A stretch of 64,000 bases of DNA from an uncultured Candidatus Binatia bacterium (GTDB lineage Bacteria > Desulfobacterota > Binatia > UBA9968 > JAJDTQ01): the NCBI GenBank assembly GCA_965215605.1, contig OZ244070.1, positions 480,001 to 544,000 on the forward strand. The letters are read 5' to 3'. Below are positions 555 through 22,466 of this stretch, piece by piece (within the stretch, counting starts at the first letter, position 1; each line of letters starts with the position of its first letter). Under the pieces are notes generated by a model. The model had not been told where the DNA came from. It searched no databases and saw only the letters and a list, made by a program, of their open reading frames with translations. The position numbers and the translations under genes are program-made.

Positions 555-595
555 CCACGCACGCCCCGCGGCAATCATCGAAAGGATTGGAAATC

Positions 596-1639: not shown

Positions 1640-1705
1640 GCACCTTCCCCGTCTCAGCCCCGTTTCTACTTCGATTGGCAGCGCGGTGACCGTAGCCGCT
1701 GCCTG

Positions 1706-1740: not shown

Positions 1741-1808
1741 AGCTTCGGGGCCTAATTGATCCGTTAGCCGCGTTCGGCGATCGGCAGGAAGTGGAGAACT
1801 CTCTCCGC

Positions 1809-2699
1809 ATGTTCAGAAATCCGTTCCTCGAAGAAGTCACTGTCAACAAGGACAAGCGCCAACAGCTCGACCACCTTCTGCGGGTGACGGCGCCCCACGA
1901 ACGCGTCATCCTCGGGGGGATCGGGCTGGTGGTGTTGGCGCTTGCGGCGTGGGCGCTGTTCGGCAGCGTCGTGCGCGCGGTGACCGTCGACGGCGTCTTG
2001 ATCGAGCCCGGCGCGCGGCACGACATCATCTCGACCGAGCCGGGATACCTGGCCGAATATCTCGTGGCTCCCGGAGACCGCGTCGAGGCCGGCGCGCCGA
2101 TCGCGCGACAGAGCGTGCCGGAGCTCGACCGTGAGACGGCGGCCCTTCGCGACCGGGTGGAACTGCTGGAACAGGGAACCCGGCAGGCCGGCGGAGACGG
2201 CGGCCCCTTGCGCACATTGCTGGCATCGGCCCGGGTGGCGTTGCTTCAGATGGAGGCGCAACGCTCGGCAAGGGAGTATGTCGTCAGTCAGATCGCCGGG
2301 CGGATCACCGCGCTGCGAGCCTCTCCCGGTGACTACCTGCCGGCGGGCGCGGCCGTGGCCCAGCTACGGGACGCGGGGGACCAGCCCCTCCAGGCGGTTC
2401 TACGCATTGCCTCACGCATGGCACAACGCATCCGGCCGGGCATGGAGGCCTCGGTCGACGTGGTGATGCCGGACGGCACGACGCGCCGGTGGGACGGGAG
2501 GGTGGCTTCCGTCACACCCGGCCCGCTGCCTCGCTGGCTGGCCCTGCTGCCGCCCGCGGCTCCGGACTCCTCGCATCGCGTCGACGTGGTCCTGACCCGG
2601 ACGTCGGAGTTGCCGTTGCCGGACGGCACCCCGTGCCGGGTGCGTATCGTCATAGGCCGCCACTCTCCGGCGGCGCTCTTCGACCTGGAAAGGTCCTGA
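1809..2699 (+). CDS. NHLP bacteriocin system secretion protein (HlyD-family membrane fusion protein)
   Basis: N-terminal QLDHLLRVT plus one TM helix, lipoyl-like halves (VAPGDRVEAGAPIA / ASPGDYLPAGAAVA); abuts the C39 ABC transporter. ATG 1809 preferred over GTG 1791. Confidence 0.8.
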   Translation: MFRNPFLEEVTVNKDKRQQLDHLLRVTAPHERVILGGIGLVVLALAAWALFGSVVRAVTVDGVLIEPGARHDIISTEPGYLAEYLVAPGDRVEAGAPIARQSVPELDRETAALRDRVELLEQGTRQAGGDGGPLRTLLASARVALLQMEAQRSAREYVVSQIAGRITALRASPGDYLPAGAAVAQLRDAGDQPLQAVLRIASRMAQRIRPGMEASVDVVMPDGTTRRWDGRVASVTPGPLPRWLALLPPAAPDSSHRVDVVLTRTSELPLPDGTPCRVRIVIGRHSPAALFDLERS

Positions 2700-4922
2700 A
2701 TGGCAGCCCCGGGCGGGAAAGAGTCGGCGGGTTCCGGGAGCAAGCCCGGTAACGAACCTGGGAAGGGGCGCATAACCACCCCGCTGCTGATGCAGACCCA
2801 CGCCACCGAATGCGGCGCGGCATGCCTCGGCAGCGTGCTGGCTTACTTCGGCCGTTGGGTTACTTTCACCGAGCTGCGCGGCAGGTGCGAGGTCAGCCGG
2901 GACGGCTCCACCGCCGCCGGCATCATGCGGGCCGCCCGGCACTATGGACTCGAGTGCACCGGCCGCAGCGCGCCGGCGCAGCAACTCAAGAAGCTGCCGC
3001 TCCCGCTGATCCTGTTCTGGGAGTACAACCACTTCCTCATTCTCGAAGGCTTCGACAGCGAGCGGGTCTACCTCAACGACCCGGCCACGGGCCGGCGCGT
3101 GCTCTCCGCCGAGGAATTCGCCGCAAGCTATTCGGGCGTCGCCCTGCAATTCAATGCCGGGCCGGACTTCCAGCCCGGCGGCACCCGGGCCAACCTCCTG
3201 CAAAGACTCCCCGCATGGCTGCACGACACACGGGGGGCGCTGGCCTATGCCGTGGCATGCGGCCTCTTGCTGGCCGTGCTGGCCCTGGTCACCCCGGCGG
3301 TCCTGGGCATATTCGTGGATCGGGTGCTCGGAGAGAACGAAGCCTGGGGGGGCCTGATGGCGGGAGCGTTGACCGCCGCGGCGGCCCTGGTCTATGGGCT
3401 TGCCTGGCTCAAGCAGCGGTGGCTTCAGCGCCTTTCCGTGCGCATCTCGGTGATCGCCGGCAATCGTTGCCTGTCGCGCCTGCTCCGGCTGCCGGTGGAG
3501 TACTTCAGCCACCGCATGGTGGGTGAGCTCACCGTCCGGCTCCTTTCCATCGACAGGATCGCCAAGAACCTGTCGGAACACTTTCTCGGGGTGCTCATCG
3601 AGATCGCCATGAGCGTGCTCTTCCTGGCCTTCATGCTGGCCTACGACGCCATGCTGGCATCCATCGTCCTGGGGCTGGCGGTGTTGAACGGGATCCTCGT
3701 ACGCGTGATCACTCGCCTCCGCACGGACCAAAGCCATGCCTTGCGGCGCGAGCAGGGATTGCTGATCGGCGTGGGCACGCTGATGTTGAACCAGGCAGAC
3801 CATTTGCGGATGACGGCGGAGGACGACGGGTTCTTTGCCCGCTGGAGCGGCCATCAGGCGCGTGAGCTGGGAGCGCGCCAGCGGTTCTCGGAGTTGAGCC
3901 ACGTCAACGCGGCCATGCCGGGACTGTTCATGATCCTGGGCCACGTGGCCGTGTTGACCATCGGCGCCGGCCAGGTCATCGCCGGCGATCTGACCCTGGG
4001 CGCGCTGGTGGCGTTCTACATCGTGGCGGGCATGTTCCTGGAGCCCGTGGGCCGCTTCGTCGAGTTTGCCGACCAGCGGCAGGCCCTCGAGACCGACATG
4101 CAGCGCCTGGACGACATCACCCAAACCCCCGAAGATCCGGGCTTGACCCGTGACGCCGCTGTTTCGGAGACCATCGCGACGTTCAACGGGCGGCTGCGCC
4201 TGGCGGGCCAGGTGGAGCTGCGCAACGTCACCTTCGGCTACAACCGCGGCCGTCCGCCGTTGATCAAGGACTTCAGCCTGACCATTCAGCCGGGACAGCG
4301 GGTGGCCGTGGTCGGTCCCAGCGGCTCCGGCAAATCGACGCTGTCGCGGCTGGTATCCGGCATCTATCAGCCCTGGTCGGGCGAGATCCTGTACGACGGC
4401 CGTCCGCGAAACGAGATCCCCCGCGAGGTCCTGTCGCGCTCCTTGTCGATGGTGGACCAGGACGTCGTCCTCTTTTCCGCCACCGTGCGCGAGAACGTCA
4501 CCCTGTGGAACCCCACCGTCCCGGACGAGGATATGGTGGCCGCGGCCCGGGACGCCTGCATCCATGACGAGATCCTCAACCGGCCGCTGGGCTACGGCAC
4601 TCCCGTCGAAGAAGACGGGAGCAACTTCAGCGGCGGCCAGCGACAGCGGCTGGAAATCGCCCGGGCGCTCGTGGGCAACCCCACGGTGCTGATCCTCGAC
4701 GAGGCCACCAGCGCTCTCGACGCCGCCACCGAAGAGAGCGTCGACGACGCGCTGCGGCGCCGGGGTTGCAGTTGCCTGATCGTCGCACACCGGCTGAGCA
4801 CGGTGCGGGACTGCGATCAGATCATCGTCCTCGAGAAGGGCGTGGAAGTGCAGCGCGGCACCCACGACGAGCTCATGGCTGACGAAACCGGACTGTACTA
4901 CCGGCTCGTCCGCGCGGGATAA
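2700..4922 (+). CDS. NHLP-family ABC transporter with N-terminal C39 peptidase (leader-cleaving exporter)
   Basis: C39 motifs QTHATECGAACL and WEYNHF; TM domain; Walker A GPSGSGKS, signature FSGGQRQR, Walker B ILDEATSALD. Confidence 0.92.
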   Translation: MAAPGGKESAGSGSKPGNEPGKGRITTPLLMQTHATECGAACLGSVLAYFGRWVTFTELRGRCEVSRDGSTAAGIMRAARHYGLECTGRSAPAQQLKKLPLPLILFWEYNHFLILEGFDSERVYLNDPATGRRVLSAEEFAASYSGVALQFNAGPDFQPGGTRANLLQRLPAWLHDTRGALAYAVACGLLLAVLALVTPAVLGIFVDRVLGENEAWGGLMAGALTAAAALVYGLAWLKQRWLQRLSVRISVIAGNRCLSRLLRLPVEYFSHRMVGELTVRLLSIDRIAKNLSEHFLGVLIEIAMSVLFLAFMLAYDAMLASIVLGLAVLNGILVRVITRLRTDQSHALRREQGLLIGVGTLMLNQADHLRMTAEDDGFFARWSGHQARELGARQRFSELSHVNAAMPGLFMILGHVAVLTIGAGQVIAGDLTLGALVAFYIVAGMFLEPVGRFVEFADQRQALETDMQRLDDITQTPEDPGLTRDAAVSETIATFNGRLRLAGQVELRNVTFGYNRGRPPLIKDFSLTIQPGQRVAVVGPSGSGKSTLSRLVSGIYQPWSGEILYDGRPRNEIPREVLSRSLSMVDQDVVLFSATVRENVTLWNPTVPDEDMVAAARDACIHDEILNRPLGYGTPVEEDGSNFSGGQRQRLEIARALVGNPTVLILDEATSALDAATEESVDDALRRRGCSCLIVAHRLSTVRDCDQIIVLEKGVEVQRGTHDELMADETGLYYRLVRAG

Positions 4923-4926
4923 CCCG

Positions 4927-7848
4927 ATGGAGACCTCGCAGTTTCACCCCCTGGCAGACCTGGCGGCCGAGTCGGGAACGGCCGTCCCCTGCGCCGGCAA
5001 CCTTCCGCTGGACATGGACGATCCCCGGTTCGTCTGGTTCATCGAGACGGGGGCGGTCGACCTTTTTCTGGTGGAACGCCGGGACGGGGTGGAGCAGTCC
5101 GCGCCACAGCACCTGTTGCGCGCCGATGCCGGGCGGTTGCTGCCCGGTGTGACCCCCGAGGCGGCGGACACCACCCTCGGCCTGATGGCGAAGGGGTTGC
5201 CGAATACGATTCTGCGGCGCCTCCCGATCACCAGCCTGGCGGCCATCCGCAGCACAGAGCTGGCGGCGCACGTCGACGCATGGCTCACGGACGTTTCCGC
5301 CATCCTGTCGCGGGACGTTCCGCACCTGCCCCGACCTGACGGGCTGGTGGAATCCGGACAGGCTCCGCAGGTCCTGAAGGGTACGCTTTCGTCGCGCCGG
5401 GGCGTGGCATGGGTATCGACCCCGCCGGACTCCGGGCTGTTCATGGACTTGATCGACCCGGCGGAGCGCGATGCGGAAGACCGCGCCGGGGCGGCCAGGA
5501 TACCCCTCACGCCGGCGAGTTGGCTCACGCTGACCGGGGAGCTGGAGCTTTACGCCCAATCCTCGGAAGCCCTGGCCGAAGAGGGCCTGCTGCTGCCGGC
5601 CCTGGCGAGGTTTCACGCCGTGGCGTTCTCGCTGGAACGACTCAACCGCGGTCTGGCGGTGGTGGATCAGGCGAATCTGGAGCGGGCACGGGCCGCCAAC
5701 CGCCGCACCGACGAGGAAGGCGCCCGCCGCCGGCTGTTCAACCTCTACGGCCTGCAGGAACCGGACGGCGCGGCGGCGGGCGATTCGGTGCTGCTCGAAG
5801 CCCTGCGGGCCGTCGGCGCCCACGAGGGAATCGACTTCAAATGGCCCGAACGGAACGAGGCCGCCGGGTCCGACGCCGTCATGCGCAAGGTCCTGGAAAC
5901 GTCGGGAGTACGTGGACGGCGGGTGCGGCTCGCCTCGCAGGACCGCTGGTGGGTTGGTGACAGCGGCGCCATGCTCGCTTTCCGCGCCGACGACGACCGG
6001 CCGGTGGCGTTGTTGCCGGGCGTGCTGGGGCCCTATCTCGAAGTGGATCCCGTCGACCGCCGCAGGACCCGGGTCACGCCTGAACGCGCGGCATCGCTCC
6101 GCGCCGACGCGTGGGCATTTCAGCAACCACTCGGGTCAGGCCAAGCCGGCCTGCGGGACCTCTTGCGCCTCGCCGTCAAGGGGTTGCCCCGCGACTTCGT
6201 GCGCTTCCTGCTGGCCGGGCTTCTGAGCGGCCTCGTCATGCTGCTGCCTGCCATCGTGGTGGGCATCATTGTCGACGAGGTGATTCCCGCCGGCGAGGCC
6301 GGCCTGTTGTATCTGGCCGGCGCGGCACTGGGAGCGTTCGCCCTGATCCGGGCGTTGCTGCACATTCTCCAGGGAATGGCGCTGATGCGCCTGGAAGGCC
6401 GTGTCGCCTCGCGAGTGGAGGCCGCGTTCTGGGACCGGCTGCTCCGGCTGCCGCCGGGCGTCCTCCATCGTTACCCCGCCGGGGACCTCGCCATACGGGG
6501 GATGACGTTCCAGCGACTCCGTGACGCCGTGCAAGGCGCGGTGGCCGACGGGGTTCTGTCTCTCCTCTTCCTGTCGCCCGCGTTCCTGCTCATATTCTTC
6601 TACGACGCCATGCTGGGCGTCGTGGCAGCCGCCTTCGGCCTCCTGTCACTGCTGGCGACGGTGGGACTCGGCCTGCGCCAGATACCACCGCAAGGCCGGG
6701 TAACCCGGACCGTCCAGGGGCTGGCCGGGCGGCTGTTCCAGCTCGTCAACGGCATTTCCAAGCTCCGCGTGGACGGCGCCGAAGGCTCCGCGTTTGCGGT
6801 CTGGGCGCGGGACTACCGCGAGCAGAAGCATGCGGAGCTGGAGGTGGCTCGGTTCGAAACCCATCTACGGGCGTTCGGTGCGGCCTTGCCTCTGCTGGCG
6901 GCGGCGGTGCTGTTGCTGGCCGCGACCTTGCCGGACGGGCGGACCATCACGGCGGGTGACTTCCTCGTCATCTACACCCTGTTCATGCTGTTCCAGACGG
7001 CGGTGGCCCGCCTGGGCATGTCGTTCAGCACCGTCGCCGCCATCGTGCCCGCCCTGGATCAGGTCCGGCCGTTCCTCGCCCAGGCGCCGGAGACGGGCGC
7101 CGACGGCGAACCGGTCGAGTCGCTGGGGGGCGACATCGCGTTCGACCACGTCTCCTTCCGGTACGGCCCGGACGGCCCGTTGATCCTCGACGACGTCTCC
7201 ATCCGAGCCCGCCCCGGCGAGTTCGTCGCCATCGCCGGCGAGTCGGGCGCGGGCAAGAGCACCCTCTTCCGGCTGGCGCTCGGTCTGGACCAGCCGTCCG
7301 GCGGCGCCCTGTACTACGACGGGCGCGACCTCAAGCACCTCAACCTCAAGCAGGTCCGCCGGCAGATCGGCGCGGTCCCGCAGCAGGTGCAGCTCCACCC
7401 ACAGGACCTCTGGGACAACATCGTCGGCGACGACGAAGAAGCCACCGTGGACGATGCCTGGGAGGCGGCCCGGCTCGCGGCCGTCGACCAGGAGATCGCG
7501 GCGATGCCCATGGGGATGATGACCAACGTGGGCGCAAGCACCAGCGTTACATCCGGGGGCGAGAGCCAACGCATCGTCATCGCCCACGCGCTGCTGCGCA
7601 ACCCGCGCATCCTGCTGCTGGACGAAGCGACCAACTGGCTCGACAACGACAACCAGTCCAGCATCATGGACAACCTCGCGGGCCTCACCTCCACGCGTAT
7701 CGTCATTGCCCACCGGCTTTCCACGCTGCGCCAAGCCGACCGCATCTACGTCATGCGCGCCGGGAAGGTAGTCCAGGAAGGCTCCTTCGCCGAGTTGACA
7801 GCAACCGAGGGCGTCTTCCGGGATCTAGTGCGACGGCAGATCGCGTAA
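4927..7848 (+). CDS. NHLP bacteriocin export ABC transporter, second (peptidase-less) subunit
   Basis: N-terminal cNMP-binding-like segment (VWFIETGAVDLF), TM domain, GESGAGKS, SGGESQR, LLDEAT; typical partner in NHLP cassettes. Confidence 0.88.
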   Translation: METSQFHPLADLAAESGTAVPCAGNLPLDMDDPRFVWFIETGAVDLFLVERRDGVEQSAPQHLLRADAGRLLPGVTPEAADTTLGLMAKGLPNTILRRLPITSLAAIRSTELAAHVDAWLTDVSAILSRDVPHLPRPDGLVESGQAPQVLKGTLSSRRGVAWVSTPPDSGLFMDLIDPAERDAEDRAGAARIPLTPASWLTLTGELELYAQSSEALAEEGLLLPALARFHAVAFSLERLNRGLAVVDQANLERARAANRRTDEEGARRRLFNLYGLQEPDGAAAGDSVLLEALRAVGAHEGIDFKWPERNEAAGSDAVMRKVLETSGVRGRRVRLASQDRWWVGDSGAMLAFRADDDRPVALLPGVLGPYLEVDPVDRRRTRVTPERAASLRADAWAFQQPLGSGQAGLRDLLRLAVKGLPRDFVRFLLAGLLSGLVMLLPAIVVGIIVDEVIPAGEAGLLYLAGAALGAFALIRALLHILQGMALMRLEGRVASRVEAAFWDRLLRLPPGVLHRYPAGDLAIRGMTFQRLRDAVQGAVADGVLSLLFLSPAFLLIFFYDAMLGVVAAAFGLLSLLATVGLGLRQIPPQGRVTRTVQGLAGRLFQLVNGISKLRVDGAEGSAFAVWARDYREQKHAELEVARFETHLRAFGAALPLLAAAVLLLAATLPDGRTITAGDFLVIYTLFMLFQTAVARLGMSFSTVAAIVPALDQVRPFLAQAPETGADGEPVESLGGDIAFDHVSFRYGPDGPLILDDVSIRARPGEFVAIAGESGAGKSTLFRLALGLDQPSGGALYYDGRDLKHLNLKQVRRQIGAVPQQVQLHPQDLWDNIVGDDEEATVDDAWEAARLAAVDQEIAAMPMGMMTNVGASTSVTSGGESQRIVIAHALLRNPRILLLDEATNWLDNDNQSSIMDNLAGLTSTRIVIAHRLSTLRQADRIYVMRAGKVVQEGSFAELTATEGVFRDLVRRQIA

Positions 7849-7963: not shown

Positions 7964-8000
7964 CTTTTAGTTACGATCGGTAAAAACAAGGAGGTGACAT

Positions 8001-8264
8001 ATGCAGGCGTTTCAATCGGCAGAGGATATGCGCCGTCAGTTGACGGAGAAGGCGACGGAAGATCCCGCATTCCGGGCACAGCTCGTGGCGGATCCCAAGA
8101 GCGTCCTCTACCAGGAGTTCGGCGTGTCGGTTCCCGACAATATCGACATCCAGGTGCATGAGAGCGACATGCGCACCGTGCACCTGGCATTGCCGCCTAG
8201 CCCCGTGCTGGACGAGGAACAGCTCCAGGCGGTTTCCGCCGGTCTTTGCTGCTGCGGGATCTAG
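8001..8264 (+). CDS. NHLP (nitrile hydratase-like leader) RiPP precursor; predicted core LCCCGI
   Basis: Leader motifs KATEDPAFRAQLVADPK, HLALPP and LDEEQLQAVSAG (double-glycine-type site) followed by LCCCGI; strong RBS. Confidence 0.92.
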   Translation: MQAFQSAEDMRRQLTEKATEDPAFRAQLVADPKSVLYQEFGVSVPDNIDIQVHESDMRTVHLALPPSPVLDEEQLQAVSAGLCCCGI

Positions 8265-8273
8265 ACCAGGTTC

Positions 8274-8362
8274 ACCGCTCCCGGCAAGGGCTTGGAGCGG
8301 TCCGACGATAAAAGGGGACCCGCGGGCGCGACACCTCATCGCGTCAGCGGTCCCCGTTTCTT
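8274..8362 (+). terminator. Tandem stem-loops / terminator after the precursor
   Basis: ACCGCTCC(8274-8281)/GGAGCGGT(8294-8301); GGGGACC(8314-8320)...GGTCCCC(8349-8355) followed by GTTTCTT. Confidence 0.55.
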
Positions 8363-8478
8363 GACCGAGCCTCCATGGCACCATAACGCTTCCTGTTGGA
8401 TCGGGCGGAGATGGCGCATCCTCGGGATGAATGTCCGCTTGACACCTTCGAATCTCTCAACCAGGCCCAGCCCTCGCA

Positions 8479-10797
8479 ATGCAGCATTTCGAAACGCGAT
8501 TCGCGGAGTGGGTGGTGGCGGCCCGCTGGCCGATCGTGGCGGCCACGTTGATTCTGGTCGCGGTGGCCGCGAGCGGCAGTCTGTTCCTCAAGTTCTCCAC
8601 GGACTATCGCGTATTCTTCAGCGAAGACAATCCTCAACTCCTGGCCCTCGAGGCGTTGGAAAGCACCTACGGGAAGAGCCACAACGTCCTGTTCATGATC
8701 GTTCCGGAGGATGGCGACGCCACGTCGGAACAGGCCCTGGCGGCAGTGGGCTGGCTCACCGAGCGCGCCTGGCAGGCGCCGTACTCGAGACGCGTCGATT
8801 CCATCGCGAACTTCCAGCATACCACCGCCGACGGCGACGACTTGTCGGTGCGAGACCTTGTCGACCCGACGAAGCTGGCCGATGGCGGGGAACGGGCGCG
8901 GATCCGCGCCGCGGCCCTGGCCGACCCGCGGCTTGCGGGAAGCCTCCTGGCCCGGGACGGCAGTGTGAGCGCCGTCAGCCTGACCGTGGAGCTGCCCGAC
9001 GAAAATCAAACCGTGACGGTGCCCGAGGTCGCCGAATTCGCCCGCGGGCTCGCTGCCGAGGTGGAAAATCGGTTTCCAGGGATCGACCTCCGTCTGGTCG
9101 GCACGGTGATGATCAACCACGCTTTCTCGGAAGCGTCGGTAGACAGCCAGAAGATCTTCCTGCCTGCTAGCCTCGCCATCATGGCCCTGGTTCTTGCAAT
9201 CCTTACCCGGGGATTCGCGGGGCTGGCGGCGACGGGGTTGGTGATCGTCTTCTCCGTCGTCGTGTCGATGGGGCTGGGGGGTTGGGTCGGGCTGCCGTTC
9301 TCCCCGCCCACGGCACCGGCGCCGACCATCGTGCTGATGATCGTCGTGGCCAACTGTGTGCACCTGCTGATGGCGTTGCTGCAACGCCTGCGGGCCGGCG
9401 ATTCCAGGCGCGCGGCGATCGTCGAAGCCGTCAGGCTCAATCTGTATCCGATCTTTCTCGCCAGCGTGACCACGGCGTTCGGCTTCCTGACCATGAATTT
9501 CTCCGAAGTGCCGCCATACCGCCACCTGGGAAACTTCGTCGCCTTCGGTATCGGCGCCTCGTTCGTGCTCTCGGTCACGTTCCTGCCGGCGCTGCTCTCG
9601 CTGCTCCCTGTTCGCGCGCCCCGGGCCGCGCGGCACGAGGACCCCGCGATGGCCGCCATGGCGAAATTCGTGGTGCGGCGCCGGAAGGCCCTTTTGTGGG
9701 GATCGGCGGCGGTGGCGTTCGCCCTGCTGGCGGCCATACCCCGCAACGAGCTCAACGACGTTCTGGTGCACTTCTTCAACGAAAGGGTCGAGTTCCGGCA
9801 GGATACGGACTTCCTGGACGAGAGGTTGAGCGGCAACACCGTGCTCGAATACTCGCTCGCCTCGGCCGGCCCGGGCCACGTCGCCGACCCCCTCTTTCTG
9901 GCCGACGTATCGGCTTTCGCCGACTGGTACCGCAAACAGCCCGAAACACGGCACGTCAACGTCATCACCGACACGTTCCGGCAGCTCAACAAGAGCATGC
10001 ACGGCGACGATCCGGCCGCCTACCGGCTTCCGGCAAGGCGCGATCTTGCCGCGCAATACCTGCTGCTTTACGAACTCTCTCTGCCCTTGGGACTGGACCT
10101 GAACAACCGGATCGATTCCGCCAAATCGGCGACGCGCATGACGGTAACAGCAAAGACCCTTTCCTCGCGGGAGGTGCTGGAGTTGAACGCGCGCGCGGAA
10201 GCCTGGCTGAAGGGCAACACGCCGCGTATTACCCGCGTTGACGCCTCGGGTCCCGCGCTGCTCTTCGCCCATATCGGGCAACGCAACATCCGCGCGATGC
10301 TGCTCGGAACCGCGGTGGCGCTCCTCGGTATTTCTCTCCTCCTCGTCGTCCCCTTGCGGTCGCTCCGGCTCGGCCTCGCGAGCCTCGTGCCCAATTTTGT
10401 CCCCGCGGTAATGGGCTTCGGCGTCTGGGGACTGATGGTCGGACAGGTGGGACTCGCGCTTTCGGTGGTGGTGGCCATGACCATCGGGATCGTCGTGGAC
10501 GACACCGTACATTTTCTCAGTAAATACCGCCGCGCGCGGCGCGAGTGCACGCCGGAGGACGCCGTGCGCTACGCGTTTCAGACGGCGGGGCGGGCAATGG
10601 TCACGACCTCGGCCGTCCTCGTGGCGGGTTTCCTGATCCTGGTCCTTTCCCCATTCATCCCCACCGCGCAGGTAGGGCTGCTCACGGCAATGATCATCGC
10701 GTTCGCGCTGCTCACCGATTTGCTGCTCCTGCCGGCGCTGGTGCTCACCGTGGACCGTGGCGTCCCGCCCGCCGGGACGGTCCATACCGAAGCCTGA
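8479..10797 (+). CDS. MMPL/RND-family transporter
   Basis: Two repeats of 1 TM + large loop + 5 TM; GIVVDDTVHF motif. Confidence 0.85.
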   Translation: MQHFETRFAEWVVAARWPIVAATLILVAVAASGSLFLKFSTDYRVFFSEDNPQLLALEALESTYGKSHNVLFMIVPEDGDATSEQALAAVGWLTERAWQAPYSRRVDSIANFQHTTADGDDLSVRDLVDPTKLADGGERARIRAAALADPRLAGSLLARDGSVSAVSLTVELPDENQTVTVPEVAEFARGLAAEVENRFPGIDLRLVGTVMINHAFSEASVDSQKIFLPASLAIMALVLAILTRGFAGLAATGLVIVFSVVVSMGLGGWVGLPFSPPTAPAPTIVLMIVVANCVHLLMALLQRLRAGDSRRAAIVEAVRLNLYPIFLASVTTAFGFLTMNFSEVPPYRHLGNFVAFGIGASFVLSVTFLPALLSLLPVRAPRAARHEDPAMAAMAKFVVRRRKALLWGSAAVAFALLAAIPRNELNDVLVHFFNERVEFRQDTDFLDERLSGNTVLEYSLASAGPGHVADPLFLADVSAFADWYRKQPETRHVNVITDTFRQLNKSMHGDDPAAYRLPARRDLAAQYLLLYELSLPLGLDLNNRIDSAKSATRMTVTAKTLSSREVLELNARAEAWLKGNTPRITRVDASGPALLFAHIGQRNIRAMLLGTAVALLGISLLLVVPLRSLRLGLASLVPNFVPAVMGFGVWGLMVGQVGLALSVVVAMTIGIVVDDTVHFLSKYRRARRECTPEDAVRYAFQTAGRAMVTTSAVLVAGFLILVLSPFIPTAQVGLLTAMIIAFALLTDLLLLPALVLTVDRGVPPAGTVHTEA

Positions 10798-10839: not shown

Positions 10840-12168
10840 CTACTTCCTCTTTCCCGGCGGCGCCGGGCTTTCTCCGAATGGCATGCCTTCCCCCTGGAAC
10901 ACCTGCTTCGGATCGAACTCTCTCTTCCACCGGATGCCCGTTTCCAGCTTCTCTCCGAAGTGTTCCTTCCATTCCTCGCGCCCATAGCCCACGCGGCCCG
11001 ACAGATAGCTCTTTCCTCCGAGGCCGACGAGTGTCCGGGTGACCTCCTTCAGTCTTTCCGCCACCTCGCTGGCCCTTTCGTAGGCGCCCAGCACGGCCAG
11101 GATATGGTACGAGAACATGCGCCTCCCGCTCGGGTGCATGAAGAGCGGGGCGTCGATCGCCTCGGTATTGATCGGATAGATCCCGATCCAGCTTTCGGGT
11201 GCTGGCGGCACCCACTCCCGGTCCAGCCAAGGCTGGGCGAGCACCGTCGGAAGGGTTTCCCAGGGCATGAACCAATCGCGCCACGGGTAGTAGTGGCTCC
11301 GGCTGAACAGCCAGCCCAGATACATCCCGGCCCGTCCGACCTCGGCGGTGTCACGGATGCTGACAATCTCCTCGTACCCCAGCCCTTCGAGCACCGTTCC
11401 GTCATCGTGTTCCCGGTCGTACTCGACGCCGGCATCCATGATGATCTCGCTGTCGTGGAACCGGGTCTCCGCTCGCAGACGGCCGAACCGGCCCTCGTCG
11501 ACGGCCTGTTCGAAGTCACGCGCGAACCGGTCGAAATCGCGATAGCGGAGCTCGTACTGCCGAATCCGTTCTCCGGCCTTTCGAACGCGGATCCACGCGT
11601 CAGCAATGACGCCGAATTGTCCCTGGCCACCCCTCACCGCGTCGAAGAGGTCCGCGTTCCGGGTGCGTGAGCACCGTACTCGCTCGCCGGTTCCGGTCAC
11701 CACGTCGAGTTGCTCGACCTGTCCGATCTGCATCCCGTAACGGTGGGACGTGTTGCCCAGCCCTCCCGCGGACAAAGTTCCTCCGACGGTCACATCCAAC
11801 GTATCCACCAGCACCCGTGGCAGCCGTCCCGCCCCACGCAGCGCCTCCAACACCTTGCCCCACGGCGCTCCGCCTTGCGCCCGCACCAAGTCTCCCCCCA
11901 GGGGCCGGACTCGATCAAGGTACATCGTGTCGAGCACCAGGCCGCCGTCCGTGAGGCTCTGTCCGCCCTGAGAGTGTCCTCCTCCGCGGACGGCCAGTTG
12001 GACTCCGTCGCCGGCCGCCCCGCGGACGATGCTCGACAGCTCATCGACGCTCTTCGGTCGCGCCACCGCTCCGGGCATCTTCCTGATCATTCTTCCCCAG
12101 TCGTACGATCGAGCCTCCCGGTCTTCCCGGTCTTTGCTCACGCTCGATTCGACACCTTGTTCGACCAT
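10840..12168 (-). CDS. FAD-binding oxidoreductase (VAO/PCMH fold; cytokinin dehydrogenase / berberine-bridge-like)
   Basis: VRGGGHS (covalent-FAD His motif), TVGGTLSAGG, LFDAVRGGQGQFGVI, C-terminal KREFDP. Confidence 0.85.
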   Translation of the reverse strand: MVEQGVESSVSKDREDREARSYDWGRMIRKMPGAVARPKSVDELSSIVRGAAGDGVQLAVRGGGHSQGGQSLTDGGLVLDTMYLDRVRPLGGDLVRAQGGAPWGKVLEALRGAGRLPRVLVDTLDVTVGGTLSAGGLGNTSHRYGMQIGQVEQLDVVTGTGERVRCSRTRNADLFDAVRGGQGQFGVIADAWIRVRKAGERIRQYELRYRDFDRFARDFEQAVDEGRFGRLRAETRFHDSEIIMDAGVEYDREHDDGTVLEGLGYEEIVSIRDTAEVGRAGMYLGWLFSRSHYYPWRDWFMPWETLPTVLAQPWLDREWVPPAPESWIGIYPINTEAIDAPLFMHPSGRRMFSYHILAVLGAYERASEVAERLKEVTRTLVGLGGKSYLSGRVGYGREEWKEHFGEKLETGIRWKREFDPKQVFQGEGMPFGESPAPPGKRK

Positions 12169-12321
12169 TTCTCCTCCTCTCGGGGCACCGTTCCCCGCGG
12201 CAAGATCCTAGAGGCACGAAGCCGCTTCGTCAACGTGCTTCCCGGTTCCGGATCGCTCTTGCATTTCCGTCGGCGGCTACCTAGTCTTTCCCCCGACACG
12301 GGAGGCCACATCGTGGCCGGT

Positions 12322-13176
12322 ATGCAGCAACGGGGGACCAGAGTGGAAATGGAAACGTCTGTCGCCAAACACTACGCCGACTTGACCGAACGCATGGAGA
12401 AGTTCGGCGGGGATCTGCTGGCATGCCATTTCGGCCTTTGGGGACCGGACACGACCACCGATCAGGAAGGCCTGTTGCGCGCCAACCATACCCTGGTGCA
12501 GGGGTGCGATCTCGGCGCGGGACAGCGTGTGCTGGATGCCGGCTGCGGCGTGGGCGGCACCGCCATCATGCTGGCGGAGGCCTATGGCGCCCACGTCACC
12601 GGGCTGACGATCTGCGAGCCGCACGTCGCGGTGGCGGCACAACACGCCGAACGGCGCGGCGTCGGCCATCTGGTGGATTTCCGCCACGGGGACTTCATGG
12701 AGCTGCCGTTCCCTGACGCCAGTTTCGATGCGGTCTTGAATCACGAGTCGTTCTGCTACGCGGACGACAAGCTCGCCTACCTCCGGGGGGTCCACCGGGT
12801 GCTCAAGCCGGGAGGCCGCTGGCAGGCCCTCGAAGGACTGCTGAGCGGCGCGCCGATGTCCGAAGCGCAGGAAGCGCTTCACGCAACCGCACAGCGGGGC
12901 TGGCGCATGCCGCCACTCGAGCCGTGGCGCGACGTTCTCGCGGCTCTCGAGGAAGCGGGTTTCGCGCAGATACGGGAGCAGGACCTCTCCGCCGAGGCGA
13001 TGCGGTCCACGGAAAGAATCCGCCAGGGCTGGCTGTTGCTGACTTTCCTGAATCCCCGCGCCGGCGGGCTGAATCGGGCCTCCCAGGAGTTCATGGAAGC
13101 GACCGTCGGCTACGATCAGGGACTGCAGGAAGGGGTGTTCACCTACCACTTCCTGTCCGGCGCGAAGCCTGCGTAG
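12322..13176 (+). CDS. Class I SAM-dependent methyltransferase (tocopherol/sterol MT-like)
   Basis: HFGLW, VLDAGCGVGG, PFPDASFDAV, RVLKPGGR. Real start is ATG 12322 or 12349; the ORF-track extension to 11710 overlaps the oxidase. Confidence 0.85.
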   Translation: MQQRGTRVEMETSVAKHYADLTERMEKFGGDLLACHFGLWGPDTTTDQEGLLRANHTLVQGCDLGAGQRVLDAGCGVGGTAIMLAEAYGAHVTGLTICEPHVAVAAQHAERRGVGHLVDFRHGDFMELPFPDASFDAVLNHESFCYADDKLAYLRGVHRVLKPGGRWQALEGLLSGAPMSEAQEALHATAQRGWRMPPLEPWRDVLAALEEAGFAQIREQDLSAEAMRSTERIRQGWLLLTFLNPRAGGLNRASQEFMEATVGYDQGLQEGVFTYHFLSGAKPA

Positions 13177-13188
13177 AGGCCGGTCGAC

Positions 13189-14064
13189 TCAGCCGGGTTT
13201 TTCCGCACAGTATCGCCTGAGCTCGAAACTTCCGTTGCTCCAGGCTTCGTACAGCGTTTGGAACTGGTCGATCAACGCGCGGGTCCCGGGCGTTTCGACG
13301 CCGGCAAACCGTAGCGTTGCAAGCAGATTGTAGGCATTCCCGACCAGCCGCATGTTGTCCGCGTCTTTCCCGCCGAAATCCTCGAACTCCAGGACTTCCA
13401 GGCCCGCTTCGCGCAACTTCCCGGAGTAGGTGGACTGGCTCTCCAGACCCTGCACGGCGAACGGCTCGCACAACGGCACGATGTACTTGTCGTACGCCTC
13501 GGCCGCCAGACCGTCCCGCGCCATCCAGTCCATGGCCACGATCCTTCCCGACGGCTTCAGGATCCGGCTGGCTTCCTGAAGGAACCGCCCTCGGTCGTGG
13601 TAGTGGCATGCGCTCTCGATGTTCACCACCACGTCCACCGAAGCGTCGGCGAAAGGCAGGCTCAGCGAGCAATCGGCAAACTCGAAGCGGACTCGATCGT
13701 CCACACCGGCATCGCGTGCCTTGCCGGCGGCCATCTCCAATTGCATCCGGTTCAGATTGACGCCGGTGACCGTGCATCCCCGCGTTCTTGCAAGGTGGAT
13801 GGCGGTTCCGCCCACCCCGCACCCCGCGTCCACCACATGATGGCGTTCCTCGATGCCGGCCGGCGCGACGATGACCTCCACCATGCGCTCCACGGCGCGC
13901 GCGAGTCCCGCGGACTCCGAGAGTTCCTCGCCGGGCCGGGGACATTCTCCCGGCTCGAAGAGTCCGAAGTGGATATGGTCGCGATTCCACCCCCTGAGGT
14001 AGATGCCCGGCGTATTGTCGTCGTAGTAGCGTTCGGCGGCTTTCTTCTCGTCAGAGGCGGACAT
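13189..14064 (-). CDS. Class I SAM-dependent methyltransferase (tocopherol/sterol MT-like)
   Basis: HIHFGLF, VVDAGCGVGG, PFADASVDVV, ESACHY, RILKPSG. Confidence 0.88.
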   Translation of the reverse strand: MSASDEKKAAERYYDDNTPGIYLRGWNRDHIHFGLFEPGECPRPGEELSESAGLARAVERMVEVIVAPAGIEERHHVVDAGCGVGGTAIHLARTRGCTVTGVNLNRMQLEMAAGKARDAGVDDRVRFEFADCSLSLPFADASVDVVVNIESACHYHDRGRFLQEASRILKPSGRIVAMDWMARDGLAAEAYDKYIVPLCEPFAVQGLESQSTYSGKLREAGLEVLEFEDFGGKDADNMRLVGNAYNLLATLRFAGVETPGTRALIDQFQTLYEAWSNGSFELRRYCAEKPG

Positions 14065-14083: not shown

Positions 14084-15211
14084 TCAGGAAGACGGCGGCG
14101 TCAGCAACGCCATGAAAGGATACCCCTTGACCTGCTCGATCCGGTCCCCGGCCAGCACGAGCTTGATGTGGTGAACGCCGCGCAGGAGCACGAACGGCCC
14201 CAACACGCCGAACAGCGTGGTCGGACCCGGTGCCCACTTGGCCAGCGCCGACAGCTTTTCCGGAACCGCAAGGCTTTCCTCGCGCAAGCCATCGATGAAA
14301 GCGGTCCAGAGATCGGGCCGGTCCAGCCAATGACGCGGATCTTTCGCCCTCCTCTCCTTGGCGAGGTAACTCAGTCCCAGCGTCGGACCGACCCCGCCCG
14401 CATCCACGTCCAAATGGACCCCCATCTCGACGAACCCCCCTCGCTCCGCAAGGCGCGCCAGGGTTGCGGCGGCGACCGGACTCTGTCCGGGCCAGCCGAC
14501 GCGTTCCAGGAACGCCATGACGGCGCGTGAGTTCCGAAATCCTGTCACCGCAAGACGGATTGCCCTTTCGCGCGATGGAAATACGCCGATGGATTCGATC
14601 TGCGTATCCCCTTCCTGGGCCAGGTGCACCCGTTCGACCTGCCGGCGCTCAGCGGCGTCCGGGGTCCACCCGGCGGCGGAAACCAACGCGTCGAGCACAA
14701 CGTCCACGTCCCGTATCCGCTGGCCCGCGCCGTCCCCCACGATGGGCCGTTCGGCAGGGCGCAGGAATATCCCCGGATCCGGGCGCGAGCCGCCGAGTGC
14801 CGAGCCGACGTCGTACTCAAGCATCATCTTGCGGCCGACGACCTCGCGCAAGGGGGATTCCTCGGAGTCCGTCTCGGACAAGAACAGCGCGATTCCGGCC
14901 GCGGACGAATCCGTGCTTCCCGACCGCGCCTTTTGCTGGAAGACCGCGGCCGCCCCCGTCCCGCCCACCAAAGAGACGCCGAGATCCGCTCTCGGCCTGC
15001 GCTCGTTCAACGGCAGTTCGAAACCGAAGGGGAAGGCGGCCATGGTGGACGGCAACTCGCGCGCGACTCCGAGCAGACCCTCCCATTCCGCTTCGCCGAT
15101 CAAGGCAGGGGGAATCAGGTTCCTGAGGCCCTCCAGCAGCCCTCCCATGGAGTCCGCCTCGGCGGCGAGGCGCTCCTGGGTGACTGCCAGCGCTTCCTCA
15201 AAGGTCGCCAT
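14084..15211 (-). CDS. Hypothetical protein in the YcaO operon (possible ABBA prenyltransferase-like fold)
   Basis: 375-aa ORF 6 bp downstream of the YcaO gene. The fold guess rests on motif style (FGFELPL, LEYDV, HIKL, KGY) and is unverified. Confidence 0.6.
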   Translation of the reverse strand: MATFEEALAVTQERLAAEADSMGGLLEGLRNLIPPALIGEAEWEGLLGVARELPSTMAAFPFGFELPLNERRPRADLGVSLVGGTGAAAVFQQKARSGSTDSSAAGIALFLSETDSEESPLREVVGRKMMLEYDVGSALGGSRPDPGIFLRPAERPIVGDGAGQRIRDVDVVLDALVSAAGWTPDAAERRQVERVHLAQEGDTQIESIGVFPSRERAIRLAVTGFRNSRAVMAFLERVGWPGQSPVAAATLARLAERGGFVEMGVHLDVDAGGVGPTLGLSYLAKERRAKDPRHWLDRPDLWTAFIDGLREESLAVPEKLSALAKWAPGPTTLFGVLGPFVLLRGVHHIKLVLAGDRIEQVKGYPFMALLTPPSS

Positions 15212-15217
15212 GGCGGT

Positions 15218-17614
15218 TCACGCGATGACCGGGACTGGGTTGAGATCCGTCTCCGCAAGGGGAGCTTCGCGCCGTCCCATCGCCACCGGCACGTCGAACA
15301 GGCGCCCCGGCGCAAAACGTTCCCAGAAGTGGCGGAGTCCCGGCACGATCACCCTGGCCACCGGCATGCCGATGTCGGGCCGGGTCTGATCGAGCACCAG
15401 GAACTCCATGCCCCTGGCTTCCACCAGCGCGCGGCATCGCTCCACGTCCTCCCTCACGTCCGCCGTGTCAAGACCGGGGTCCGGCCTCCCGCGCGGCGCG
15501 GCGCCGCGGTCGGGGGCCAGATAGGGGTGATCCGCCAGCTTCGCGTTCTTCCACCACCAAAGGCACATGGGATCGTCGACACCGTACCGGGAGCCGCCGC
15601 TCCCCGGACGGGGTACCCAGGTCAGGCATTGATTCAGTTCGCACACCGCGCGCAAGGCCGCGATGTGGGGGTCGGCGTGCGCCCCGGCGCCGTAGATGAT
15701 GTCCTCCACTTCGGCGTCGGTGCGGCGCGAGAGCGCGACGAAGGCCGGGATGCCGAGATCGCCGGTGACGTCCAGCACCCACACGTCGCGGTGAAGGCCC
15801 CGGTAGTAGTCGCGCGCGGAAGCCAGGTATTCGTCGCCGAAGCTCTCGATGTCCACCGCGGGCACGCGCAGCCGGTTGTACCACCAGATCGCGAAGGCAT
15901 CGCGCTCCACCAGCTCGAAGAATCCCTGAAGGATGGCTTCCTCAAGGGTGTTGCCGGCGGCACAACCGTTCGAATCAGCCCAAAAGCCGGAACTCCCACG
16001 CTGCTCCGGGGCCATGCCGTAGAGCATGGAGGTCGGCAGATACCGATGCCGGTCCTGGGTGAGCGACCACACCGGCGACCACTCCATGGGCTGGTCAGGG
16101 TCAAGGCGCGCGGGAACGATATTGTAGGGGTGTTCGCGCTCGTTGATTTCGTCCGCTTGATCCAGTTGCCGATCGCTGAAGAGCTGGACATCGTTCGGGT
16201 GGATCGCTTCCGGCGCGCCGTCCGCCGCGAAATCCGAAAAACGCCGGCGACGCCGAATCTCGTCCCCATGGAACGCGCCGGAATAGCGCTCGATGGCTTC
16301 GCAGAGCGCACTCGCCTCGGACTGCCTCGCCGTGCTCCCCTTGCCCGCGCTCTTGCTTCGCAGACTGCGCTTCAACGAGCTCAGGCTCCTGATTCTCAGC
16401 GCCAGATTGCTGCCGGCCCAATGGACGTGCAGCCAGGGATCGGTCTCCTCCGTGGTGCGCGTGACCCACGTCACGATCCCGCTGACCGGACTGATCAGAT
16501 GACGGTATCGGGCGAGGGTCTCCCGCGGCGGCACCGAACGCAGGCCGCCGCTGTTGCGCACCCTCTTCGGGCTCGGTTGCAGCCGCACCGGAACCGCCGG
16601 CCGGTCGGCGCGATTCAACGTGCTGTCGCCGCAGGCCGGGCACTGCGGACGGCGCATGACCGGATGGTGCTCGCTCTTCAGACTGGCAACGTCCAGTGAA
16701 ACCGCCTGCTCGTGGATTGGCGCGCTGCCCCCGAAGACCAGCCACTTGGCGACTTCCGCCGCCACCATGCCGTGGACGGCATCCACCACCGCCGGTTCGA
16801 CCGCGCAGGGAAGCACAGCCGCATCGTCCCCGCCAAGGTTCCGCAGGAAAGTGTGCACTTCGTGGTGGCCGCGCAGGCGATGGGTGAGACAGGCCCAGCA
16901 CGGCCCCTGTTCCGCGGGCCGGAAGACCGGGCCGAACAGGGGCTGGACGCCCCGTGGCCTGACCAGCATCCACGGCGCGCCGGACTCGAGGTGGCGCCGA
17001 TTGCGGTCCGCATGCCGTTCGTCGAGATAGTCGGCGCAGACGACAACCGAGAGCGTCGGCCGGTCCGCCTCCACGGCCACGCCCAGGTCTCCCAACCGGC
17101 GGGCGAAGCGGCCGTCATCGCCGGCCACCTCGATCCTCGACGCCCCCAGCCGCTCCTCGGCCCACCGGGGAGAAGCGCCCAGAGCGGACCAAAAGGCCGC
17201 CGAACCCGGTTCCATGGCGTGCCCGCCCGAGACCACGTATCCCCTGGACGCCAGGGCAATCAGCGCCGCTTGGACGTCGGATGCCGAATACCCCTCCGCA
17301 AGGCCCGCGACAATGTCGTCTTGCGTGCGGCGGCCGTCGAGAAGCGGCAGAAGATCGAGATAGATCGGCCCGCGGAGCAGCGTGTCGAAGGTTTCGGAGA
17401 CCAGCAGCACTTGTTGGTCGTCGATGGGGCGAAACTGAAGATGCGGCGTCAGCACCGGCGCCTCGATGAGGCCGCGGTCGGCGGGAACGGTCTTCGTCAA
17501 TATCCCCCGTGGCGGGGAGGTGGGCGGAGACGCCTCCCCGTCCGTGGGCCTTCCCGAGCCTTCCACTCCCGGAACCGGCGACGCTCCGGGGTTCTGTCCG
17601 GTGTCCCGCCTCAA
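15218..17614 (-). CDS. TOMM-type fused cyclodehydratase (RRE/E1-like + YcaO), azoline-forming
   Basis: PCWACL...CPAC Zn motifs; YcaO motifs SAGKG, EAIERYS, SNGCAAG, ELVERDA; Pro-rich C-terminus NPVPVIA. Alternative TTG start at 17500. Confidence 0.92.
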   Translation of the reverse strand: MRRDTGQNPGASPVPGVEGSGRPTDGEASPPTSPPRGILTKTVPADRGLIEAPVLTPHLQFRPIDDQQVLLVSETFDTLLRGPIYLDLLPLLDGRRTQDDIVAGLAEGYSASDVQAALIALASRGYVVSGGHAMEPGSAAFWSALGASPRWAEERLGASRIEVAGDDGRFARRLGDLGVAVEADRPTLSVVVCADYLDERHADRNRRHLESGAPWMLVRPRGVQPLFGPVFRPAEQGPCWACLTHRLRGHHEVHTFLRNLGGDDAAVLPCAVEPAVVDAVHGMVAAEVAKWLVFGGSAPIHEQAVSLDVASLKSEHHPVMRRPQCPACGDSTLNRADRPAVPVRLQPSPKRVRNSGGLRSVPPRETLARYRHLISPVSGIVTWVTRTTEETDPWLHVHWAGSNLALRIRSLSSLKRSLRSKSAGKGSTARQSEASALCEAIERYSGAFHGDEIRRRRRFSDFAADGAPEAIHPNDVQLFSDRQLDQADEINEREHPYNIVPARLDPDQPMEWSPVWSLTQDRHRYLPTSMLYGMAPEQRGSSGFWADSNGCAAGNTLEEAILQGFFELVERDAFAIWWYNRLRVPAVDIESFGDEYLASARDYYRGLHRDVWVLDVTGDLGIPAFVALSRRTDAEVEDIIYGAGAHADPHIAALRAVCELNQCLTWVPRPGSGGSRYGVDDPMCLWWWKNAKLADHPYLAPDRGAAPRGRPDPGLDTADVREDVERCRALVEARGMEFLVLDQTRPDIGMPVARVIVPGLRHFWERFAPGRLFDVPVAMGRREAPLAETDLNPVPVIA

Positions 17615-20961: not shown

Positions 20962-21244
20962 GACCTCTTCAATTAACTTTCTTCGGCAACCGTTTTCAAG
21001 TCGAGACCGCCCGTACGCTCCGACGCCAGCATGCCACGACGCTCCGGAACAGCCCGATTCCACACAGAAACAATTTTATATTGACAACCACACGTCATGT
21101 TTCCGACGTGCACAAACCGGTGAATCGCAAGAGGTTGTCACTCGAACAGGCGCACAGTCTCCAAACGCGATTGTCATTGCGCCGACGGCTTTCGCGGGAC
21201 CCGCCGTCATCTCTCGTTGCTTATTCACGTATCGTATTAGGTCT

Positions 21245-21287
21245 TGATGAAAATTCATCACCAGACGAAGATGGTCCCACTATTGCT
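21245..21287 (+). promoter_or_regulatory. Putative sigma-54 (-24/-12) promoter with adjacent palindrome
   Basis: TGGTCCCACTATTGCT (GG-N10-GC) at 21272-21287; TGATGA-AAAT-TCATCA at 21245-21260. Confidence 0.5.
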
Positions 21288-21337
21288 ACAAACGAATTAT
21301 ATTTCGCATAGTCAAGAACAGAACAAGGAGGGAGTAA

Positions 21338-22378: not shown

Positions 22379-22466
22379 CCGCCGCCGGCACAACGTCGGC
22401 AAGAATCGGCCGGCAGCCTGCCGGACCCTGTTGCGCACGGTCCGCCGGGCCGATATCTTCAACCTT

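Follow-up and report, generated by a model that had tools for sequence, protein, structure and literature searches.

A probable srp-family ribosomal peptide precursor with the core LCCCGI in a Binatia-like genome

The srp biosynthetic gene cluster of sponge microbiomes (SrpE, SrpC, SrpI), reportedly described by Nguyen et al. (JACS, 2021), is the system against which we set a short precursor gene and its neighbours in a 64-kb stretch of contig OZ244070.1 from an uncultured Candidatus Binatia bacterium (henceforth the window, with positions counted from its first nucleotide). According to excerpts of the srp literature, SrpE has the core LCCCW, whose three cysteines are converted to thiazolines by SrpC and whose last residue, Trp, is brominated by SrpI (PMC10858898, PMC10286304). 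Excerpts of a further report place srp clusters among the most widespread genes for peptides that are made by the ribosome and modified after translation (RiPPs) in sponge microbiomes, with precursor genes that are among the most transcribed of the RiPP clusters there (10.1101/2023.06.09.544420). Excerpts also describe the mpr cluster of a methanotroph, which holds the precursors MprE1-10, the YcaO protein MprC and the azoline oxidase MprD (PMC12455567, PMC10286304). A first-pass annotation of the window had cited the LCCCW core and the conversion of Cys to thiazoline, in agreement with these sources; the novelty of the ribosomal route to contiguous thiazolines that it proposed was overstated, because ribosomal tri-thiazolines are already published srp chemistry.

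The window locus shares with srp an NHLP leader with an L(X)4L motif and an AG boundary, a core that starts with LCCC, a homologous fused YcaO, genes for an ABBA-fold protein, an AlkB-GlnE fusion, an MMPL transporter and a C39-containing ABC transporter, and relatives among metagenome-assembled genomes (MAGs) whose record titles name sponge-symbiont taxa. Specifically, in 20 metagenome loci whose precursors have the LCCCW core there are homologues of the YcaO (58–74% identity), ABBA-fold protein (46–54%), AlkB-GlnE fusion (48–59%) and MMPL transporter (66–71%), as well as of its two ABC transporters (ABC1 and ABC2). Because the LCCCW loci share these genes, we assign the window cluster to the srp family in the broad sense, and the kinship with srp that the first-pass annotation had suggested stands. 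Two features of srp as published are missing, namely the terminal Trp and a SrpI-type brominase: compared with the LCCCW type, the brominated Trp is replaced by Gly-Ile, the cluster has no halogenase, and two S-adenosylmethionine (SAM) methyltransferases and a flavin adenine dinucleotide (FAD) oxidase have been gained. In addition, MMPL, oxidase and methyltransferase genes separate the precursor from the tailoring operon. We conclude with good confidence that the open reading frame (ORF) at 8001–8264 is an expressed-type precursor of a srp-family RiPP (in the broad sense), which would be cyclised by YcaO, then tailored, cleaved by a C39 peptidase and exported, in a Binatia-like genome close to the MAGs of sponge symbionts.

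The precursor gene and its relatives

The precursor and its associated signals are located as follows:
7989..7995, plus strand: Shine-Dalgarno-like AAGGAGG, 6 nt upstream of the precursor ATG
8001..8264, plus strand: NHLP/proteusin precursor of 87 residues, with leader 1–81 and core LCCCGI 82–87; L(X)4L at 70–75 and AG at 80–81
8268..8366, plus strand: two stable hairpins directly 3' of the precursor stop, the second followed by GUUUCUU; minimum free energy −55.7 kcal/mol

The ORF runs from an ATG at 8001 to a TAG at 8262–8264, and its translation ends in ...LDEEQLQAVSAG-LCCCGI*. The AG boundary leaves 81 residues before it and six after it, three of the six being contiguous cysteines (positions 83–85) and the only cysteines of the protein. 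The leader matched the NCBIfam model TIGR03793 (leader_NHLP) with 69.5 bits over residues 8–81 (cut-off 50.9), and the precursor also matched Pfam NHase_alpha (E 8.8e-9); the metal site of nitrile hydratase is absent, since the sole cysteines are the three in the core. L70 and L75 lie at −12 and −7 relative to the boundary (Gly81), and excerpts of PMC10858898 describe an L(X)4L motif in the same register and a double-glycine-type leader/core boundary for proteusin leaders. Given this fit in both register and boundary, we consider the 81 + 6 split of the precursor to be the natural one. The leader model, the missing metal-Cys cluster together with the boundary, and the adjacent NHLP export system all place the precursor among the NHLP/proteusin peptides, as the first-pass annotation had it when it read an 81-residue NHLP leader before a six-residue LCCCGI core with three contiguous Cys.

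We searched a collection of 5.8 billion proteins for homologues of the precursor, and 217 of the 218 scored candidates passed at E <= 0.001. Among the 120 homologues listed, 115 had CCC within their last eight residues. LCCCGI was the commonest ending (65 of the 120) and LCCCW was found in four, the other endings being plain LCCC or LCCC plus G, GV, GL, GA, L, I, V, M, F or T. Genes of the LCCCGI type measure 255–264 bp, those of the LCCCW type 252 bp. In 34 diverse homologues G81 and C85 were invariant, and A80, L82, C83 and C84 were at least 90% conserved. In 76 loci, which yielded 84 unique nucleotide versions of the gene, the conserved amino acids stayed fixed despite synonymous codon change (e.g., four codons each for Ala at −6 and Gly at −2, and both TGC and TGT for Cys). 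Such variation at fixed residues argues that selection acts on the peptide. Together with the homologues, it shows that the ORF is not there by chance and that the precursor gene is genuine and widely conserved. A precomputed Pfam match, PF27793.1, was present on most of the homologous precursors and may be a newer family built on these peptides. A full-text literature search for LCCCGI or CCCGI found no relevant paper (the original srp paper and the supplements of the cited papers being outside its scope); in the literature searched, no report covers the LCCCGI type, which is common and conserved.

The hairpins behind the stop codon were more stable than expected (z −3.79), with none of 200 shuffled sequences folding equally well, and this folding model makes them a likely terminator or attenuator that would separate the precursor transcript from the MMPL gene. 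They were not picked up by a simple terminator scan, and no plus-strand promoter was found either. A search of sequencing runs listed 18 DNA-type datasets from 7 studies and no RNA dataset, a listing that carries no information on expression.

Modification and export genes

The remaining genes of the cluster are the following:
1791..2699, plus strand: HlyD-type membrane-fusion protein of NHLP export; TIGR03794 92.3 bits (below the cut-off of 156.2), Pfam HlyD_3 and HlyD_D23
2700..4922, plus strand: NHLP bacteriocin export ABC transporter (ABC1) whose N-terminal domain is a C39 peptidase; TIGR03796 881 bits (cut-off 853.3), Peptidase_C39 E 7.5e-31
4927..7848, plus strand: second NHLP export ABC permease/ATPase (ABC2); TIGR03797 684.3 bits, just below the cut-off of 709.4
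8479..10797, plus strand: MMPL/HAE3-family RND transporter, kept beside precursors across the family
10840..12168, minus strand: accessory gene for a FAD_binding_4 (VAO/PCMH-type) oxidoreductase whose C-terminal domain resembles that of cytokinin dehydrogenase
12313..13176, plus strand: class I SAM methyltransferase A (MT-A), starting with GTG at 12313 behind GGGAGG
13189..14064, minus strand: class I SAM methyltransferase B (MT-B)
14084..15211, minus strand: protein of 375 residues, predicted ABBA (aromatic) prenyltransferase barrel, in nearly all family loci and outside any Pfam or NCBIfam family
15218..17614, minus strand: fused E1-like/RRE and YcaO cyclodehydratase of LynD/TruD type; TIGR03882 146 bits and TIGR03604 271.8 bits
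17611..20055, minus strand: fusion of an AlkB-type di-iron alkane 1-monooxygenase (residues ~71–385) with a GlnE-type nucleotidyltransferase (residues ~478–767)

The genes for HlyD, ABC1, ABC2, the precursor and MMPL thus follow one another on the plus strand, after which come the FAD oxidase (minus) and MT-A (plus), and the AlkB-GlnE fusion, the fused YcaO, the 375-residue protein and MT-B form a minus-strand operon. Within this operon the AlkB-GlnE gene overlaps the start of the YcaO gene by 4 nt, and only 6 nt lie between the end of the YcaO gene and the start of the ABBA-fold gene.

The cluster YcaO is the only one in the 4.06-Mb genome. It unites the YcaO domain and its E1-like/RRE partner in one protein, the combination that marks linear azol(in)e-containing peptide (LAP/TOMM) systems, and it matched LynD over its full length (E 2.7e-167, residues 54–795), with further matches to TruD and MusD. 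No SagB-type flavin mononucleotide (FMN) azoline dehydrogenase was found in the cluster, the sole TIGR03605 match of the genome lying ~285 kb away (C1:194624-195874). Barring oxidation by the FAD oxidase or the AlkB domain, the rings are therefore probably retained as thiazolines. The mpr system shares the 81-residue proteusin leader, the L(X)4L motif and an azoline-installing fused RRE-YcaO, but it differs in having a flavin azoline oxidase that makes thiazoles and ten varied cores, whereas the window has a single, ultra-short core and lacks such an oxidase in its cluster.

The 375-residue protein matched no family in sequence searches of Pfam (E <= 10), NCBIfam and PDB sequences; its best PDB sequence match, to an ATP synthase (E 0.26), was taken as noise. 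Its database relatives number 755, most of them unnamed, and the source names shown are all 'hypothetical protein'. An AlphaFold (AF2) model built with 36 homologues reached a predicted local distance difference test score (pLDDT) of 91.7 and a predicted template modelling score (pTM) of 0.91, and displayed alternating pairs of helices and strands, in keeping with the ten-strand antiparallel barrel of alpha-beta-beta-alpha repeats that defines the ABBA fold. Foldseek returned 107 matches to this model at E <= 0.001, and those listed among its 50 best ranks, ~40 entries, were prenyltransferases without exception; the matches include FunA, EpzP, DMATS1, PagF, LimF, PatF and NphB. Similarly, VIA-align superposed the model on MpnD with Z 17.1 (root-mean-square deviation 4.5 Å, 309 residues aligned) and found 133 chains at Z >= 8, those listed being prenyltransferases throughout. 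Invariant basic or aromatic residues are found on the barrel strands (R214, R219, K319, R344, H347, H348, K350, K362 and Y364). We thus predict, from the structural model, that this is an ABBA prenyltransferase-fold protein.

In the AlkB-GlnE fusion, the AlkB domain matched the solved alkane 1-monooxygenase 8f6t (E 1.3e-52) and has all four His-rich motifs (HELIH, EHIYIHH, NYVQHYGL and QRHPDHH); on these grounds a 'desaturase' label for the domain beside GlnE was replaced by AlkB alkane 1-monooxygenase. MT-A was also considered as a longer ORF, 11710–13176, which was rejected as it overlaps the oxidase gene and shows homology only from about residue 183–207 onwards. For MT-B, the best family similarities are weak and point to N- as well as O-methyltransferases.

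This enzyme set invites comparison with the cyanobactins, with which it shares a full-length YcaO of LynD/TruD/MusD type, an ABBA-fold neighbour (through fold matches to PagF, LimF and PatF) and a predicted short, linear run of azolines; among such peptides, the muscorides (MusD) are linear and terminally prenylated. It differs in its NHLP leader and in the predicted removal of that leader by a C39-ABC protein, as opposed to the PatA/PatG proteases, none of which has a counterpart among the ORFs scanned (nor was a subtilisin seen among the Pfam-scanned ORFs of 1–25 kb, a scan that covered part of the ORFs), and in an ABBA-fold protein without detectable sequence similarity to solved prenyltransferases. 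Thiangazole, tantazole and mirabazole are products of non-ribosomal peptide synthetases and polyketide synthases (NRPS-PKS) with consecutive thiazolines. The window product would resemble them if all three Cys were cyclised, and its SAM methyltransferases could in principle methylate; these compounds are non-ribosomal, whereas Pfam scans of the ORFs detected no NRPS or PKS gene in the cluster, so the resemblance is one of scaffold only.

On the export side, the Cys of ECGAACL, the His of NHFLIL and the NDP motif, which we take to define the catalytic residues of C39 peptidases, are all present in ABC1. Judged by these motifs, its C39 domain (at about residues 28–153) is the predicted leader peptidase, cutting after AG81.

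Upstream of the cluster, ORF 430–1689 (plus strand, 419 residues) was rejected as a cluster gene because it is a spurious frame with an Arg/Pro/Gly-rich translation. The true gene lies in a neighbouring frame:
443–1639, plus strand: ornithine cyclodeaminase/mu-crystallin family protein of 398 residues
Since it is common only to loci of the same genus, this gene probably lies outside the cluster. Past the cluster, positions 20107–25120 hold a gene of the chlorite-dismutase family (minus strand), a sigma-54-dependent activator and two adjacent genes for M16 (insulinase-type) peptidases, and the genes beyond 20055 look unrelated to the cluster.

Core tails, tailoring genes and distribution

We compared 55 genome loci whose precursors are related to that of the window (L006–L060, of 65 returned) and 20 metagenome LCCCW loci, with 76 loci entering the counts of core tails; gene content per variant was counted in loci of at least 10 kb. 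Single-linkage clustering of ORFs gave a spurious, GC-rich super-cluster, and only clusters of long ORFs were used for annotation. In the window, none of three halogenase queries found a tblastn match in the 64 kb, consistent with the missing halogenase of the first-pass annotation. Across the 76 loci, SrpI-like halogenases were detected in 9 of the 32 with a Trp-containing core and in none of the 44 without Trp. Of the 19 loci with LCCCG[IVL] cores, 17 held MT-B, 16 held MT-A, 13 held the FAD oxidase and none held a halogenase; of the 12 with LCCCW only, five held a halogenase and none held either methyltransferase or the FAD oxidase. Both methyltransferases occurred in all five WCCCGx loci, two of which (L032 and L033) contain an LCCCW precursor and a halogenase as well. 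By contrast, MT-B was found in none of the seven loci with a single-residue tail and in 2 of the 13 with a tailless core (LCCC, RCCC). A Fisher test of tail against tailoring genes gave p 2e-4, a value that ignores relatedness, and we regard the pairing seen in these gene contents as suggestive.

The same genome offers a separate view of this pattern. It contains two full-length Trp halogenase genes (PF04820, ~629 bits) and one split, weaker match, each beside a Trp-ending NHLP precursor, situated ~243 kb from the cluster and on contig 6. The three further precursors are 38–41% identical to the one in the window, have no Cys and end in GG-IGDIHTW, GG-IGDINTW and GG-SWSALW. The further NHLP precursor/halogenase loci (L002–L004 and L071–L074; genome G000) are at these positions:
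C1:235643-237655
C1:244186-245779
C6:405-2757
The three loci resemble systems for peptide bromination of the SrpI type that lack a YcaO, and because their halogenases adjoin Trp-ending precursors, they lend independent support to the pattern of Trp and halogenase.

Two different precursors sometimes lie a few kb apart near one YcaO: MCCCGI with LCCCW in gammaproteobacterial loci (L026, L027, L030, L031, L035, L038, L041, L088), WCCCG[QN] with LCCCW and a halogenase (L032, L033), and LCCCGV with RCCC (L037). As these pairs adjoin a single YcaO, one enzyme set may serve several cores. The MCCCGI loci (the group L026–L041) also have a UbiA-family prenyltransferase gene directly upstream of the precursor, with genes of LolA-like, DUF1302-like and MpaB/Lcp-type oxygenase proteins nearby, which we read as further hints of lipid or isoprenoid handling around the peptide family. 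Examples are:
L031:9000-9875
L035:6785-7654
L026:7656-8996
L038:4629-5825

Related loci came from MAGs titled with sponge-symbiont taxa (Poriferihabitaceae, Porisulfidus) and with several phyla, and the trio of AlkB-GlnE, YcaO and ABBA-fold genes sits beside a precursor in genomes labelled Binatia, Alphaproteobacteria, Gammaproteobacteria and Nitrospirales. In a tree of YcaO proteins the window grouped with two genomes of the same genus (L006, L007) and then with a Rhodospirillales MAG; the LCCCGI clusters were not monophyletic, and most LCCCW clusters formed one clade. One of the two close genomes (L007, the same as G024) is titled 'Thermodesulfobacteriota bacterium', yet its GTDB genus is that of the window, as for the 'Binatia' genome L006 (the same as G022), so that counting phyla by record title gives too many for the closest clade. 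Of 24 further species genomes in the GTDB genus of the window, 11 had a srp-type precursor (E <= 1e-20), only two of these precursors being close to the LCCCGI one (94% and 85% identity), and none was found in 16 genomes from other families of the order. This patchy presence, together with 74% YcaO identity between the Binatia-like genome and an alphaproteobacterium, fits a spread by horizontal transfer among co-resident symbionts, as far as such comparisons can suggest it.

Proposed pathway and alternative readings

Taken together, the gene content suggests the following route to the product, which by analogy with srp is likely a tri-thiazoline hexapeptide that is tailored further. The structured 81-residue NHLP leader would dock on the RRE/E1-like part of the fused YcaO, which would then cyclodehydrate Cys83, Cys84 and Cys85 into three contiguous thiazolines, as has been shown for the orthologous pair SrpE and SrpC. 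Going by fold and family, the ABBA-fold protein, the AlkB-GlnE fusion and MT-B, joined by MT-A and the FAD oxidase, would tailor the peptide. Our best guess is that a terminus or a thiol is prenylated, that a methyl group, either aliphatic or prenyl, is hydroxylated, and that a methylation goes with the Gly-X tail; the GlnE part may transfer a nucleotidyl group and the FAD enzyme may oxidise an amine or alcohol. The C39 domain would cut after Ala80-Gly81, a cleavage shown for such exporters elsewhere, ABC1, ABC2 and HlyD would export the product, and the HAE3/MMPL pump, to judge from its family, could handle a hydrophobic product in the envelope.

Several observations weigh against parts of this reading. 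The fold match of the 375-residue protein is, as a model, a match of shape and not of function, and some members of the fold (PatF) are inactive. Moreover, the core LCCCGI lacks Trp, Tyr, Ser, Thr, His and Arg and with them every classical acceptor of a prenyl group; the acceptor would therefore have to be a terminus, a thiol or a ring, which is the weakest link in the argument for prenylation. A precedent is the leader-dependent prenylation of a long-leader RiPP by MppC, described in excerpts of PMC12715784; a literature search combining prenyltransferase with proteusin, YcaO, NHLP or alkane hydroxylase found no title or abstract on srp prenylation. Cyclisation may also be incomplete: excerpts of PMC10286304 report that SrpC was poorly active in E. 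coli and gave mixtures of partly modified SrpE, so that full tri-cyclisation is not guaranteed. As for the tails, no halogenase was found within the DNA covered in 23 of the 32 Trp-core loci, and MT-B was near MCCCGI precursors in only 1 of 10 loci. When relatedness was taken into account with a tree of the ABBA-fold protein, Trp and halogenase provided one phylogenetically independent contrast, and CCCGx and MT-B five to six independent pairs, of which one to three were concordant and none discordant (p >= 0.25). The first-pass idea that loss of Trp goes with loss of the halogenase is thus borne out by the raw counts and by the Trp-ending precursors of the same genome, but it has a single independent contrast behind it. 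Likewise, the check it had proposed, of C-terminal residues against tailoring genes, gives an association of MT-B, MT-A and the FAD oxidase with LCCCG[IVL] and of halogenase with Trp, which is not established statistically.

One alternative is that the product is bare Leu-Thz-Thz-Thz-Gly-Ile (Thz, thiazoline), a ribosomal mimic of thiangazole or mirabazole that acts as a metallophore. The three contiguous Cys beside a LynD-type cyclodehydratase and the formation of three thiazolines by SrpC on LCCCW would agree with this, and contiguous thiazolines bind metals in NRPS siderophores. However, nearly every locus of the family keeps the ABBA-fold and AlkB-GlnE genes in the YcaO operon, and the LCCCGI variant adds two methyltransferases and an oxidase. 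With these genes and MMPL conserved, a bare hexapeptide is an unlikely end product; the simple product of the first-pass annotation left out the ABBA-fold protein, AlkB-GlnE, both methyltransferases, the FAD oxidase and MMPL, and so understated the tailoring. No TonB-dependent receptor or metal-uptake system appeared among the annotated gene clusters common to at least five loci, a weak negative because only 12 representative proteins were scanned. Metal binding has no genomic support and is a minority view, and we consider the bare metallophore improbable as a whole.

A slightly less probable alternative is a CaaX-like lipidation, in which not all Cys are cyclised, the ABBA-fold enzyme S-prenylates one of them, Gly-Ile is trimmed or kept, and MT-B methylates the carboxylate to give a membrane-anchored lipopeptide. 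The prenyltransferase fold, the Cys-rich C-terminal motif, the lipid-type HAE3/MMPL exporter, the partial cyclisation by SrpC and the way MT-B follows the Gly-X tail (present with LCCCG[IVL] and WCCCGx, absent with LCCCW only and with single-residue tails) all suit such a route. Yet no protease that would remove the tail was identified in the conserved gene set, tailless cores mostly lack MT-B, the similarities of MT-B do not single out an O-methyltransferase, and S-prenylation by ABBA enzymes is, to our knowledge, not established for RiPPs.

Equally doubtful is a separate, co-located lipid or isoprenoid pathway formed by the ABBA-fold protein, AlkB-GlnE and MMPL, in which case the peptide would need no more than YcaO and the exporters: lipids are the usual substrates of AlkB and HAE3/MMPL proteins, and gammaproteobacterial loci have additional genes (LolA-like, DUF1302 and UbiA prenyltransferase) of a kind typically concerned with lipids of the envelope, but the tight gene order of the operon, the persistence of the trio beside the precursor across Binatia-, Alphaproteobacteria-, Gammaproteobacteria- and Nitrospirales-labelled genomes, the recovery of all 62 full-length ABBA-fold homologues from loci fetched via a precursor match, and the exclusively 'hypothetical protein' source names shown among the database relatives of the fold protein argue against it.

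Returning to the tailored, exported srp-family peptide, we tentatively consider a further possibility that goes beyond it: srp-family peptides, LCCCGI included, may be ribosomal, envelope-directed lipopeptides that are cyclised by YcaO, prenylated by the ABBA-fold protein and hydroxylated (perhaps nucleotidylated) by AlkB-GlnE, with the Gly-X variants methylated, and that are placed in or beyond the outer membrane by HAE3/MMPL. The predicted mass shifts on the unmodified 610.23-Da core are −54 Da for three cyclisations (giving 556.196 Da for the tri-thiazoline), +68 Da for a prenyl group (or +136.13 Da for geranyl), +16 Da for a hydroxyl and +14 Da for a methyl group, and LCCCGI offers a halogen-free, Trp-free variant for working out the chemistry of the family. 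Within the wider xCCCx family, brominated LCCCW is only one branch; the prenyltransferase-fold protein and the AlkB-GlnE fusion are kept in every branch, and each kind of tail seems to go with its own tailoring genes. If the lipopeptide reading is true, the tail, which varies (W, GI, L or none), and the enzyme that goes with it (brominase, methyltransferases or oxidase) would be a modular 'head group' that diversifies one conserved scaffold across the phyla of sponge symbionts.

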